Source: Spirochaetota bacterium (GTDB taxonomy: Bacteria; Spirochaetota; UBA4802; UBA5550). Taken from it: DNA of 64,000 nt. Below are positions 1,250-13,500 of this stretch, in pieces. The stretch is taken from assembly GCA_963663865.1 (NCBI GenBank), contig OY760686.1:640001-704000 (forward strand), in the 5' to 3' direction. How positions within the stretch are numbered: position 1 is the first letter of the stretch; each line of letters begins with the position of its first letter. The translations under genes and the position numbers were made by a program. Under the pieces are notes generated by a model. The model did not search any database and had not been told where the DNA came from. It worked only from the letters and a program-made list of their open reading frames with translations.

Positions 1250-3259
1250 ATGGCAAAGAATAAAGAAAACAATAATAACGAACCAATAGAAAAGCAGCTC
1301 TGGAAATCAGCTGACAAACTCAGAAAAAACATAGACGCTGCTGAATACAAACATGTTGTTCTCGGTTTAATATTCCTGAAATACATTTCAGACGCTTTCG
1401 AAGAACTGCATTCAAAATTGAAAAGCGGTAAAGGCGATTATGCCGGAGCAGACCCGGAAGATAAAGACGAATACAAAGCGGAAAATGTCTTCTTCGTGCC
1501 GGAGCTTGCCCGCTGGTCGTATCTGCAATCAAAAGCTAAACTTCCCACCATCGGCAAAGAAGTAGACAACGCTATGGATGCCATTGAGAAGGAAAACCCT
1601 TCTCTCAAAGATGTGCTTCCTAAAGTCTACGCCCGGGGTAACCTTGACCCGACAAGTCTCGGAGGTCTTATTGACCTGATTGCTAAAATCGCCCTTGGCG
1701 ACGCAAAAGCTCGCAGTGCTGATGTACTTGGTCATGTTTTTGAATATTTTCTCGGAGAATTCGCCCTTGCCGAAGGTAAAAAGGGAGGCCAGTTCTATAC
1801 TCCCAGAAGTGTTGTCGAGCTCCTGGTCGAGATGCTTGAGCCCTTCAAGGGCCGGGTCTTTGATCCCTGTTGCGGTTCGGGTGGTATGTTCGTGCAGTCG
1901 GAGAAGTTCGTAGCGGAACATCGGGGTCGCCTTGATGACATTGCCATTTATGGGCAGGAGAGCAACCAGACGACCTGGCGCTTGTGCAAGATGAATCTTG
2001 CGATCCGGGGTATCGACAGTTCCATGGTCAAGTGGAACAACGAGGGTTCGTTTCTGAACGACGCGCACAAGGATCTCAAGGCGGACTTCATTATCGCGAA
2101 TCCCCCGTTCAATGTAAGCGACTGGTCGGGCGAGTTGTTGCGAAACGACGGCCGCTGGAAGTTCGGTACTCCTCCGGCGGGGAATGCGAACTATGCCTGG
2201 ATTCAGCATTTTCTTTATCATTTGAGTCCCAGCGGTATTGCCGGTTTTGTTTTGGCAAAAGGTTCTCTTACCTCTAAAAGTTCCGGTGAAGGAGAAATCC
2301 GCAAGGCATTGGTTGAAGCGAGGCTGGTTGACTGTATTGTTAATCTTCCGGCAAAGCTGTTTTTGAATACGCAGATTCCGGCGAGTCTGTGGTTTTTAAG
2401 AAGAGCCCCTCAGTCCCCTAAAGGGGATGAAAGAAATGAGATTCTTTTTATTGATGCCCGCAACCAAGGTCATTTGATCAATAGACGCACACGGGAACTT
2501 TCACATGAAGATATCCAGAAGATTGCCTCAACCTATCGTGCATGGAAGGCCCCCCGGCCCCCTGAAGGGGGAGTAGAAGGGAAGAAGCCTTCGGTGTTAC
2601 ATTCTGCGGATACGGCTTTTTATAGACAGCTTGAACAAAAAGCAAAGGAAATGCGTGCTCATCCAACAGAAGCCGAACGCTTGCTATGGGAGAAATTGAG
2701 CAACAAACAGCTTGGTGTCAAATTCAGGCAACAGCATGTGATCAATAAGTTTGTCGTAGATTTTTGTTCTATTGAAAAAGCACTGGTTATTGAAGTTGAT
2801 GGAGAAATACATGATACACAGAGAGAAAGAGATGAGGAAAGAACCAAAATACTTCAGGATGAAGGATATTCAATAATCAGATTAAAGAATAATGAAGTGA
2901 TCAATAATATTGAAAAGGTCATTGATAGTATCAAAAAATCTCTCCAAGCCCCCCGGCCCCCTGAAGGGGGAGACAAAAAAGGGAGTGATGCTCCCATGTC
3001 CCCTTTAGGGGATTTAGGGGCCTATGAAGATATAAAAGGTTTCTGCAACTCAGCGTCGATAGAACGTGTCAGGGAACTTGATTATGTGCTCACTCCCGGA
3101 AGATATGTCGGTCTTCCGGATGATGAGGATGACTTTGATTTCAAGGAGCGGTTTACTGCTCTTAAGCAGGAATTCATGGAGCAGTTGGAAGAAGAGAAGA
3201 TACTGAACAACCTGATACTTGAGAATCTTGAAAAGGTGAAATTTACACCAGGCTCATGA
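1250..3259 (+). CDS. hsdM: Type I R-M methyltransferase subunit with in-frame DUF559 insertion
   Basis: [10 protein letters not shown]-terminus, [14 protein letters not shown] (SAM binding), NPPF catalytic motif, [11 protein letters not shown] 1250 preceded by GGAG. Confidence 0.97.
2549..3022 (+). mobile_element. In-frame DUF559 (Vsr-like endonuclease) insert bounded by family A repeats
   Basis: Encodes [42 protein letters not shown]; identical 25-bp direct repeats at 2549-2573 and 2948-2972 and an inverted copy at 2999-3021; interrupts the HsdM segment [13 protein letters not shown]. Confidence 0.85.
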
Positions 3260-3615
3260 TGGAGGCTGATTTGAAAGGATGGATGTACATTCTGGAATGC
3301 TCTGACGGGAGTTATTATACCGGCAGTACCAATAATCTGGAAAAACGCATCAGTCAGCATCAAAGCGGTGAGGGTTCAAATCACACGAAGAAACGCCTGC
3401 CTGTAAGGCTTGTGTATTTTGAGGAATATTCGAGAATTGATGAAGCTTTTTACAGGGAAAAAAAGATACAGGGATGGAATCGAGCCAAAAAGAAGGCACT
3501 AATTGATGGAGATAATGATCTGTTGCCTGAGCTGGCTAAGGCGTATAGGGATAGAGCCGGTGGCTTCGAGGGCCTCAGCCACCGCCGAGAGCCTCAGCCA
3601 CCGTCGAGAGACTGA
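3256..3615 (+). CDS. GIY-YIG nuclease family protein (UPF0213-like)
   Basis: [47 protein letters not shown] overlap with hsdM stop. Confidence 0.92.
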
Positions 3616-10585: not shown

Positions 10586-13500
10586 AATAACTGAATCCGC
10601 CATTGAAACCTTTGCTATCGAACTTCTTGTAAAACATGGCTATCATTATATCTACGGCCCTGGTATTGCACCGGATAGCGAAAATGAATCCACACCCCCT
10701 TCAGGGGGTCGGGGGGCCGTAGAGGTTCGGCATTCCTTTGAAGACGTACTACTTCTGGAAAAATTAAAAACCGCTGTTTCCCGCATTAACCCTGATATTC
10801 CAGCAGAAGCTCGTGAAGATGCCATAAAACAAATAGAACGCCTCAACTCACCCGAACTGATAGCCAACAACGAAACCTTCCATCGTATGTTGACCGAAGG
10901 CATTAAAGTGACATACCAAAAAGACAGAAACAGTCGCGGTGATTTAGTCTGGTTAATTGACTTTGATGAACCGGAGAACAATGACTTTATAGTTATAAAC
11001 CAGTATACCGTTATCAATTCCTCCCCTTTAGGAGACCGAGGTTCTGACGACTGTGAAACTTCTCCCCCTTCAGGGGGTTGGGGGGCCAAACGGCCTGATG
11101 TCATTTTATTCGTCAATGGATTGCCTCTTGTGGTTATTGAACTTAAAAATCCAGCTGATGAAAACGCCACTGTACATTCGGCATTTAAACAATTGCAAAC
11201 CTATAAACAGGCAATCCCCTCCCTGTTTACTTACAATGGATTTTTAGTTATTTCAGACGGTCTTGAAGCAAAAGCCGGTACAATTTCTTCCGGGTACAGT
11301 CGTTTTATGGCATGGAAAACCTCTGATGGCAAAGTTGAAGCCTCTCCGCTAATTGGTCAGTTGGAAACCTTAATTCGCGGTATGCTCGACAAAAAAACAT
11401 TACTGGATATTCTCAGGCACTTTATCGTATTTGAAAAATCCACCTTGTCATCCCCTTCAGGGGACCGAGGGGCCGTCATAACCATCCAAACCGTAAAAAA
11501 ACTGGCAGCCTATCATCAATACTATGCGGTAAACAGAGCTGTTGAGTCAACACTTCGTGCTTCCGGTTACATCAGAAAAAATGTCAATAATTCCGAAGGT
11601 TTTACCGTTCAGGAATCGCCTGAAAGTTATGGTGTTCCAGGTGTGAATTCCCAGCCTGTGGGCGATAAAAAAGGCGGTGTTGTCTGGCATACTCAGGGCT
11701 CTGGAAAATCCTTATCTATGGTTTTTTATACTGGAAAGGTAGTTCTCGAAATGGATAATCCGACCATTCTTGTAATCACCGACCGCAATGACCTTGATGA
11801 CCAGCTTTTTTATACCTTTGCCTCATCTAAACAACTTCTCAGGCAGGAGCCGGTTCAGGCCGGGAACAGGGAGCAATTAAAGGAATTATTGAAAGTCGCA
11901 TCCGGCGGCGTGGTCTTCACCACGATTCAGAAGTTTCAACCGGAAGAAGGAAATGTTTACGAAAAACTGTCTGACAGAACCAATATTATAGTTATCGCCG
12001 ATGAAGCCCACAGAACTCAATACGGTTTTAAGGCAAAAACAATCGATGATAAAGACGAGAATGGCAAAGTAATTGGTAAGAAAGTTGTTTATGGATTTGC
12101 AAAATACATGAGGGATGCCCTCCCCAACGCGACTTATCTCGGTTTTACCGGAACGCCCATTGAAAACACCGATGTCAACACCCCAGCTGTTTTCGGAAAT
12201 TATGTTGATGTATATGATATAGCACAGTCCGTTCATGACGGTGCAACTGTCCGCATCTATTACGAAAGCCGTCTCGCAAAAATTGTATTAAGCAGTGAAG
12301 GCAAAAAACTTATAAAAGAACTTGATGATGATCTTGCACAGGATGAACTTTCCGAAACACAAAAGGCAAAAGCCAAATGGACTCAGCTTGAGGCTCTTAT
12401 CGGCAGTGCTGACAGAATAAAGCAGGTCGCTAAAGACATTATAACGCATTTTGAACAGAGACAGGAGGTTATAGACGGCAAGGCAATGATTGTCACTATG
12501 TCTCGTCGCATTGCTGCTGAACTGTACAAGGCTATTATTGAAATCAAGCCAGAATGGCATAAAGATGATTTGAAGAAAGGCGTTATCAAAGTTGTCATGA
12601 CTTCTGCTTCTTCAGATGGCCCGGAAATATCCAAACACCATACGAAAAAAGAGCAAAGACGTTCTTTAGCAGACCGAATGAAAGAACCCGAAGATGAACT
12701 GAAACTGGTAATCGTAAGGGATATGTGGCTCACCGGTTTTGATGTGCCTTCCCTGCATACACTCTATATTGATAAACCGATGAAAGGCCATAATTTAATG
12801 CAGGCAATCGCCCGTGTTAATCGTGTTTATAAAGACAAAACCGGCGGACTCATAGTTGACTATCTTGGAATAGCTTCTGACCTGAAAAAGGCTCTCTCTT
12901 TTTATTCTGACGCTGGCGGTAAAGGTGACCCGGCTGTTAATCAGGAAAAAGCCGTACAGCTTATGCTGGAAAAACTGGAAGTTGTGTCTCAATTGTTCCA
13001 TGGTTTTGCTTACGAAGAATACTTAGAAGCTGAAACCGGTAGAAAATTATCACTTATTCTTTCGGCAGAAGAACATATACTTGGGCTTGAAAATGGAAGA
13101 AAACGATACATTGATGAAGTAACGGCCTTATCTCAAGCATTTTCAATAGCTATACCACATGAACAGGCAATGGACGTCAAAGACGAAGTGGCCTTTTTTC
13201 AGGCAGTAAAATCACGTCTTGTTAAGTTTGACAGTACCGGCTCTGGAAAAACTGATGAGGAAGTTGAAACCGCAATTCGTCAGGTCATAGACAAGGCACT
13301 TGTTACTGAAAGAGTAATTGATGTTTTTGATGCTGCTGGTATTAAAAAGCCGGATATTTCCATATTGTCAGAAGACTTCCTTCTTGAAGTTAAAAATATG
13401 GAGCACAAGAATATTGCTCTTGAAGTTCTGAAAAAACTCCTTAACGATGAAATAAAATCCCGGACAAAGAAGAATTTAATTCAAAGCAGAACCTTAATGG

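Follow-up and report, generated by a model that had tools for sequence, protein, structure and literature searches.

We analysed a 64,000-nucleotide (nt) stretch of the genome of a Spirochaetota bacterium (GCA_963663865.1, contig OY760686.1, positions 640,001 to 704,000; hereafter the window, with G000 the genome that holds it), in which positions 1235-13916 form a type I restriction-modification (R-M) operon crowded with passenger genes. Its subunit genes hsdM and hsdR carry in-frame copies of a palindromic repeat, here called family A, two of which bracket a DUF559 nuclease domain inserted in the HsdM reading frame. Related DUF559 domains lie in frame at recurrent sites of many other host proteins. 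Taken together, the data suggest that family A probably represents the ends, and the remnant or non-autonomous copies, of a translated-through DUF559 cassette that resembles homing elements or transposable elements of the miniature inverted-repeat kind (MITEs).

Family A palindromes in the reading frames of hsdM and hsdR

Read forward, family A follows the pattern GCCCCY-NNN-YCCCCT-NA-AGGGGR, a three-block palindrome of 23-27 nt that is rich in guanine and cytosine (GC) and occurs as '5-C' and '4-C' subtypes, between which the Y and R positions covary. The window contains nine copies (Table 1): four in hsdM, four in hsdR, one of them decayed, and one in a duplicated fragment of the hsdR 5' end. 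The number, coordinates, peptides and two orientations given in an initial annotation of this DNA were thus borne out. Both host genes look intact, their reading frames being open and every expected Pfam domain present. The 12-nt core CCCCTNNAGGGG has eight matches in the window, all within the R-M locus, against a mean of 0.06 in 100 shuffles (0/100 shuffles reach 8), and was not found elsewhere in the 3,156,400-base genome. The earlier observation that no copy lies outside the R-M locus extends to this whole genome when up to 4 mismatches of 23 are allowed; 5 mismatches yield one extra match.

All nine copies, about seven of them independent, share one relative phase and encode A-P-x-(S/P)-P-x-G-(G/D) in the forward and (S/T)-P-x-(S/G)-G-(G/D)-x-G-A in the reverse orientation. 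The initial annotation had noted this phase and attributed it to the avoidance of stop codons. The phase itself stands but its proposed cause does not, since two of three frames are open in the forward orientation and three of three in the TTCA reverse type. As stop codons exclude at most one frame per orientation, the uniform phase needs another cause, and we infer that the Pro/Gly reading was selected because linkers are harmless. Family A is read in other phases elsewhere, as APDPLKG and PPNPLKG in locus L240 and as PPNPLKGE in other genes.

Comparison with related alleles revealed that the motif is conserved as DNA. Three others of the 401 genomes of the phylum that were searched (G201, G216 and G326) have an hsdM with the site-1 copy and, at the same second site, a cassette of forward palindrome, DUF559 and reverse palindrome; the same site-1 DNA is present in loci L238 and L239. 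The hsdM genes of the three genomes are 74-79% identical to that of the window at the nucleotide level, yet their motif DNA hardly varies: a 23-nt sequence, TCCCCTTTAGGGGATTTAGGGGC, is shared unchanged by 8 of 8 copies across the four genomes, and such changes as occur are confined to the spacer or loop. At conserved residues with four or more codons, to which the test was limited, identical codons are used at 48/54 positions within the motifs compared to 303/745 elsewhere in hsdM (Fisher p = 1.6e-12). Shared motif DNA is kept far beyond what the protein needs, and we did not find the reverse pattern of a conserved peptide over a decayed DNA palindrome.

The presence and absence of the motif among orthologues point in the same direction. 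In a set of 121 HsdR sequences (the query and 120 listed homologues), with loops defined by indel hotspots in the alignments, 106 have a 17-aa (amino acid) loop at site 1, where the query has 29 aa; 104 have a 29-aa segment at sites 2/3 (48 aa in the query); and 97 have a 30-aa segment at site 4, with SKKEDKETG there (33 aa in the query). A metagenome set of 80 HsdR loci, 70 of them analysable, gave 71 sequences for comparison; the modal loop lengths occur in 63, 66 and 61 of the 71 (sites 1, 2/3 and 4, respectively), and family A in none of the 71. Insert-free HsdM orthologues are 515 aa long and about 89% identical; at site 1 they read NKANGGYRNRT, and at site 2 one residue precedes an 11-aa segment. 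On these alignments, family A is a DNA-level repeat written in frame and not a conserved peptide. It had been proposed that the copies replace variable loops. This applies to HsdM site 1, where an ancestral loop of 18 aa gave way to 17 aa (-1), and to HsdR site 4 (8 to 11 aa, +3); the remaining HsdM and HsdR sites show a net insertion of 12-19 aa in the orthologue alignments.

Moreover, the HsdR sites are filled or empty independently of one another. In G216, sites 1 and 4 are empty, site 2 has a canonical forward copy beside a more decayed one and site 3 is identical over 27 nt; G326 has a single copy at site 2/3, identical in 26/27 nt to the site-4 copy of the window; G201 has a copy at site 4 only, with block duplications; and G012 has the site-1 copy. 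The recurrence of the 27 nt of HsdR site 4 at site 2/3 of G326 indicates a discrete unit of 27 nt, or 9 codons. No co-conversion between the window and G201 was evident by eye around HsdR site 4. The initial annotation had envisaged that the copies spread locally from the DUF559 module, and here the data disagree: the same copies occupy the same sites in G201, G216, G326 and G012, solo copies also occur outside R-M genes and no sign of local spreading was found. Because the same copies stand at the same sites in the hsd genes of other genomes, they came with hsd alleles; these alleles travel horizontally, and the copies were inherited or acquired with them, not generated in G000.

Other insertions use the same loops. 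HsdR site 1 also receives rhuM insertions without family A, and in several orthologues (P0122, P0139, P0154 and others) unrelated in-frame palindromes encoding KTQCIASQ- or RDAMHCVST-type peptides fill the same HsdR loops. At site 4 of the L229 HsdR, a perfect palindrome of 34 nt encodes SHVETNGRSSQH. In sequencing run X7, a variant locus carries a tandem duplication of 18 nt, TCAGGGGACCGAGGGGCC, in frame within the HsdR site-4 motif (window 11456), and the distance from the hsdS centre to the hsdR start is 2787 nt there, compared to 5686 nt. Structure prediction with AlphaFold2 gave mean predicted local distance difference test (pLDDT) values of 53 for HsdM (26-row alignment), in which the DUF559 part, aa 460-571, alone reaches 72-89, and of 45 for HsdR (57 rows), with the N-terminal 348 aa below 50; given these low values we make no three-dimensional claim for the insertion sites. 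The sole match among solved structures was the EcoR124I HsdR, over aa 696-784 only, which does not cover the N-terminal sites.

Two of the nine copies, at 9394 and 10693, are one copy doubled, because 9005-9418 matches 10304-10717 at 91.5% over 414 nt (the rhuM 3' end and the hsdR 5' end) in a segmental duplication that stops exactly at the site-1 motif. The duplication looks like a Campbell-type insertion of a cassette bearing a piece of the hsdR 5' end. The same arrangement is found in G012 (L235), and an upstream hsdR 5' fragment, truncated in this loop and with an inserted gene after it, also occurs in 4/80 metagenome loci (L157, L161, L178 and L190); in three of these four the gene is rhuM-like by eye, and family A is present in none of them (0/4).

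DUF559 cassettes in HsdM and in other host proteins

The HsdM insert matches PF04480 (DUF559) with an E-value of 6.5e-32 over profile positions 2-108 of 109 (cut-off 20.6 bits). Forward copy 2 and reverse copy 4 bracket this domain and delimit an intact cassette at 2549-3021, consistent with the link between family A and DUF559 that had been put forward at the outset. The extra forward copy 3 is missing from the simpler cassettes of L238 and L239. The insert lies in neither an intron nor an intein, nor is it free-standing; it is read through in the frame of its host. Accordingly, Pfam revealed no intein or Hint domain in HsdM, and Rfam revealed no intron, and nothing else at E <= 1, in positions 1-15500 of the window. 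The motif hhE.DG..H, which we take to be the catalytic core of DUF559, is present as VIEVDGEIH; of the 16 rows with DUF559 in the 26-row HsdM alignment, 15 retain the motif.

Insertions of this kind recur among orthologues. PF04480 is found in 38 of 120 listed HsdM homologues; in the 26-row alignment HsdM site 1 is also occupied by a second DUF559 subtype, whose flanks belong to another family, and the HsdM proteins P0113, P0045 and P0060 have solo or paired flanks without DUF559. Among the 120 listed HsdR homologues, three carry an in-frame DUF559 and one (P0135) an in-frame GIY-YIG domain. In two of them, P0146 and P0168, a whole DUF559 takes the place, HsdR site 4, that a solo copy has in the window; the left boundary, FE(K/R)S-T..., is the same as in the solo alleles and KKEDKETG is likewise missing, so that the solo copies can be read as possible remnants. 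Since whole DUF559 domains lie in the same loops of orthologues, it is no less likely that the solo copies are what is left of cassettes that inserted separately.

In-frame DUF559 is by no means confined to R-M proteins. A phmmer search with the HsdM insert and its flanks returned 21,094 representatives at E <= 0.001. Among the best 150 of these, 51 are at least 300 aa long and 42 of the 51 have host domains around DUF559. The hosts within the best 150 include eight class I aminoacyl-tRNA synthetases, mostly leucyl-tRNA synthetase (LeuRS), four SpoIIE phosphatases and nine R-M proteins (HsdM, HsdS, Type ISP, Eco57I-like and N6_N4 methylase), as well as tRNA-guanine transglycosylase (TGT), RecJ, UvrB, exonuclease VII, RecO, TatD, TsaD, Ham1, MazG, MetH, epimerases, DegT, a radical SAM enzyme and Csm4. 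Pro/Gly/Ser-rich peptides of palindrome type flank nearly all in-host inserts, and in some of them the flanks are family A peptides, such as PPQPPEGG ... PPSGGRGA in P0301 and TPPKGGWGA ... TPPLGGWGA in P0307. The host sites recur, between EGAE.xF and VFTTRPDT in LeuRS and between GDFYW and CDCTGHG in SpoIIE. In other genomes, dnaX, thymidylate synthase (thyA), truA, histidine kinase and further genes contain solo family A copies in frame, and 9 of 10 tested open reading frames (ORFs) bearing a solo copy contain Pfam domains.

The association extends to free-standing genes of the order, in which 82 of 121 genomes contain PF04480, with a maximum of 13 matches in one genome. Inverted repeats of at least 14 nt flank 11/32 DUF559 loci examined across the order but 0/59 shifted controls; the repeat family varies by gene, and different DUF559 genes with different matching palindrome families are as expected for cognate pairs. 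In G039 and G028, free-standing DUF559 genes have inverted family A-type copies within about 120 nt on both sides. The family A pattern matches the G039 genome 57 times and the G028 genome 176 times, whereas a reversed-pattern control gave 0 matches in both; most matches form inverted pairs that are separated by 75-165 nt and have TAA or TAT as spacer. The same 23-27 nt also occur in the intergenic DNA of many genomes, and 115 of 164 copies in loci from named genomes lie outside any open frame of at least 150 codons. Copies spread uniformly with no link to DUF559 are not what we observed.

Two other loci also carry repeats. A second DUF559 gene of G000, free-standing, 4 kb upstream of the window (L236 9540-10440 = G000:C1:635540-636440) and 40% identical, has direct repeats on both sides, namely 38-nt tandem units with a CCCCCTCTTnAAAGAGGGGG hairpin of a family distinct from A. 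In G012, of the same family as G000 (L235 = G012:C372), the central linker of hsdS (740-900) contains in-frame family A copies read as RPPSVPPKGG...GPLKG...SPLGDLGA, and the ORF after hsdS (1480-2320) is surrounded by another palindrome family, read as NGRDRSL peptides. ORFs in G012 and L190 appeared IS200/RAYT-like by eye; the G012 ORF runs into N's and had no Pfam match, and we make no claim for either.

These data are best accommodated by a model in which the basal element consists of a forward palindrome, DUF559 and a reverse palindrome. The palindromes would offer open frames for Pro/Gly/Ser-rich linkers and the nuclease in these copies has no stop codon of its own, so that a cassette in a tolerant host loop would be translated through as an extra domain. 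HsdM 2549-3021 would represent one intact cassette, and six other copies (one in HsdM, four in HsdR and one in the hsdR fragment) would be 27-nt solo units, either leftovers after deletion of the nuclease part between flanking repeats or non-autonomous copies moved in trans in the manner of REPINs or MITEs. DUF559 would act as the mobilising enzyme, either through cleavage and repair of the homing type or through cuts made at the palindromes.

Alternative explanations and the surrounding locus

Several observations weigh against this model. The nuclease activity, target site and movement of the cassette are predictions. Across six pairwise comparisons the DUF559 insert is 71-78% identical and hsdM 73-82% identical at the nucleotide level, and such similar divergence fits long co-residence as well as recent homing. 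G000 contains an apparently intact cassette yet no family A copy outside the locus, a pattern that argues against ongoing mobilisation in trans; together with the similar divergence of insert and host, it suggests that nothing is moving now in G000. DUF559 is within reach at only 2/132 motif loci from named genomes, and only 71 of these loci had full 1.5-kb flanks, so that most palindrome copies have no nuclease nearby. Some DUF559 genes (window 2549/2948, L153 and the second G000 gene) have direct rather than inverted flanks, as would be produced by a gene that inserts into pre-existing palindromes. Finally, single-copy hairpins fold no better than shuffled sequence (z -1.8 to +0.4).

The strongest alternative, which we regard as unlikely, is that the palindromes are an independent family resembling MITEs or repetitive extragenic palindromes (REPs), moved by another enzyme or by replication or repair errors, and that DUF559 is a passenger that targets palindromes as some insertion sequence (IS) elements target REPs. 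The hsd copies would then be plain intragenic REP-type insertions. A DUF559 share of 2/132 is the ratio expected of non-autonomous copies, and it equally allows such a passenger; the direct duplications around DUF559 resemble target duplications, and the fresh copy beside a decayed one in G216 would suggest that palindromes attract insertions. Intragenic REPs are also on record in repair and tRNA genes, as described in PMC3733652. On the other hand, PF01797 (RAYT/IS200) has no match in G000 or in the copy-richest genome, G028, and two in G039, neither of them near any listed motif; by inspection of 164 copies, the GTAG/CGTC tags were not found at the ends of family A; and distinct DUF559 genes are bracketed by distinct matching palindromes, as for cognate pairs.

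A DNA- or RNA-level role of the palindromes in the service of the host or of the R-M system, whether as mRNA hairpins or as sites of recombination or inversion that permit switching or the exchange of modules, with the HsdM DUF559 a domesticated functional part, is improbable. The conservation of synonymous motif positions across hsdM alleles that are 74-79% identical, the maintenance of hhE.DG..H and the exact end of the 414-nt duplication at the motif would all fit such a role. DUF559 proteins are also enriched (odds ratio 14.3) among predicted targets of programmed inversion, according to PMC9881135, an enrichment that inverted flanks would themselves produce. However, the motif is absent at sites 1, 2/3 and 4 from 106, 104 and 97 of the 121 HsdR sequences and thus missing from most orthologues at every site, which indicates that it is dispensable; family A also occurs in unrelated genes and intergenic DNA; and rhuM inserts at HsdR site 1 without it. 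A Pfam domain scan of the R-M locus found no invertase gene, and contigs of four public runs showed the collinear form of the locus only, although contigs are blind to rare variants such as an excision or inversion.

That the peptides are ordinary conserved or biased loop sequence whose DNA likeness arose by chance, proteins often having Pro/Gly/Ser-rich loops, is refuted by the eight core matches against 0.06 expected, the absence of the motif from most orthologues and a motif codon identity far above background, and the same 23-27 nt lie in intergenic DNA of many genomes.

The genes and motif copies of the operon are listed in Table 1. A second repeat family, GTGGCTTCGAGRGCCTCAGCCACCG, lies at 3560-3710 with inverted arms at 3635-3658 and 3686-3709, and the C-terminus of the GIY-YIG protein and the N-terminus of the HNH protein are both read through it. 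The TIR-STAND NTPase gene has a GC content of 27-36%, compared to about 46% for the locus and genome, and is probably a separately acquired defence gene. Downstream of hsdR, a 72-nt repeat at 13951-14022 and 14971-15042 (97% identical), which includes the 37-nt palindrome GCGTGTAGAGCCGCCCAATTTGGGCGGCTCTACACGC and is accompanied by further 20-nt copies, brackets about 1 kb with a PIN-domain gene (14208-14606, minus strand). Upstream of the operon is a defence island with an MNT/HEPN pair, a free DUF559 gene, a WYL protein and DUF5343-HEPN, preceded by hydrogenase genes.

Table 1 Family A copies and genes of the R-M operon, in window positions.
Feature	Position	Strand or orientation	Details
Family A copy 1	2405-2429	forward (+)	solo; 4-C; APQSPKGD; HsdM site 1
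Family A copy 2	2549-2573	forward (+)	5-C; APRPPEGG; left end of DUF559 cassette
DUF559 domain (Vsr-like PD-(D/E)XK)	2627-2944	+	in hsdM frame; PF04480 at G000:C1:642627-642944, 115 bits; 675-codon open frame
Family A copy 3	2948-2972	forward (+)	APRPPEGG; in-frame direct repeat of copy 2, 100% identical, 399 nt away
Family A copy 4	2997-3021	reverse (-)	4-C; SPLGDLGA; right end of cassette
Family A copy 5	9394-9418	reverse	TPPSGGRGA; hsdR 5' fragment
Family A copy 6	10693-10717	reverse (-)	TPPSGGRGA; HsdR site 1
Family A copy 7	11017-11041	reverse (-)	decayed; SSPLGDRG(S); HsdR site 2
Family A copy 8	11062-11086	reverse (-)	SPPSGGWGA; HsdR site 3
Family A copy 9	11449-11473	reverse (-)	SSPSGDRGA; HsdR site 4
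hsdM	1235-3259	+	674 aa with in-frame DUF559 cassette; Pfam N6_Mtase 5.5e-102, HsdM_N, DUF559 6.5e-32 at aa 465-570
GIY-YIG gene	3256-3615		start overlaps hsdM stop
HNH gene	3659-4282		between hsdM and hsdS
hsdS	4261-5505		
TIR-STAND NTPase gene	5519-8086		between hsdS and hsdR
rhuM	8260-9256		frameshifted
hsdR 5' fragment	9249-9521	+	duplicated; 90-aa ORF; contains copy 5
Second rhuM	9518-10585		
hsdR	10572-13916	+	1114 aa (orthologues mostly 1077-1080 aa); Pfam HSDR_N, SWI2_SNF2, T1R_D3-like, T1RH-like_C

Comparison with known repeat and homing systems

Beyond the favoured reading of family A as cassette ends and their derivatives, we tentatively put forward, though the balance tips slightly the other way, that DUF559 and its cognate GC-rich palindromes form an undescribed class of bacterial mobile element. 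Such an element would use no intron or intein; its inverted ends would encode flexible Pro/Gly linkers, and the whole would be translated as an inserted domain. It would invade loops beside highly conserved sequence (in R-M subunits, LeuRS, TGT, RecJ, UvrB, SpoIIE and others) and leave or spawn 27-nt in-frame solo units and intergenic doublets resembling REPINs (REP doublets), with the palindrome DNA as the nuclease's own recognition site. In a literature search that lay outside subscription journals and supplements, we found no description of DUF559 cassettes with palindromic ends or of in-frame DUF559 insertions. Of 25 papers that mention DUF559, 22 were considered, and in none of the 22 does it appear in the title or abstract. 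If DUF559 moves palindromes, a common 'domain of unknown function' (21,094 representatives; 82/121 genomes of the order) would gain a role, and staying in frame would join introns and inteins as a third means by which a selfish nuclease gene can reside inside essential and defence genes. The model would account for unusual Pro/Gly-rich insertions and for DUF559 domains that appear 'fused' in protein annotations, mark loops that tolerate 100-aa insertions and flag type I R-M alleles as vehicles that move such elements between phyla.

The known partnership of repeat and nuclease is that of REPINs with REP-associated tyrosine transposases (RAYTs), the REPIN-RAYT systems or REPtrons, and the cassette would provide a second. 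Common to both are short GC-rich palindromes, mostly in inverted doublets with a spacer and in tens to hundreds of copies, and a small nuclease gene bracketed by cognate repeats, with different repeat families for different genes. High-copy doublets as in REP/REPIN families are seen in G028 (176) and G039 (57) but not in G000, with 8-9 copies at one locus. In contrast to REPIN-RAYT, the bracketed gene is DUF559 rather than an HUH tyrosine transposase, is multi-copy and often lies inside host genes. Like MITEs, family A has inverted terminal repeats that enclose a short non-coding spacer, is present in many copies per genome and has a longer coding relative with the same ends; this relative, however, encodes only a nuclease domain of roughly 110 aa and no known transposase. 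At L001, the one locus inspected by eye, no target-site duplication was evident.

Rickettsia palindromic elements (RPEs) are roughly 100-150 bp long and lie in frame in genes, according to PMC10969869. Like RPEs and intragenic REPs, as PMC10969869 and PMC3733652 present them, family A consists of palindromes in frame in functional genes, in either orientation, that add short peptides at tolerated places, with repair and tRNA-related genes among the hosts. Family A is set apart from RPEs by size, not by sequence comparison, being 23-27 nt long, GC-rich and found in Bacteroidota-type genomes, and from intragenic REPs by the lack of the GTAG/CGTC tag used as a criterion in PMC3733652. Unlike either, it also serves as the termini of a cassette that codes for a nuclease and is in turn translated in the frame of its host.

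The insertions also resemble homing endonucleases in that a nuclease stands at the same point of a conserved gene and is present or absent among orthologues (HsdM sites 1 and 2, HsdR site 4, LeuRS and SpoIIE). I-Bth0305I reportedly represents a Vsr-like family of homing endonucleases. The closest known case is that of ShiLan (PMC11855218), an in-frame insertion in a phage DNA methylase that hides an HNH gene out of frame and has no intron or intein. Both share a DNA methylase host, the lack of a detectable intron or intein and the lack of a stop in the host frame. In the cassette described here, in contrast to ShiLan and to homing elements, the nuclease is read in the host frame, is of the DUF559 type, has palindromic inverted ends and is accompanied by many nuclease-less derivatives.

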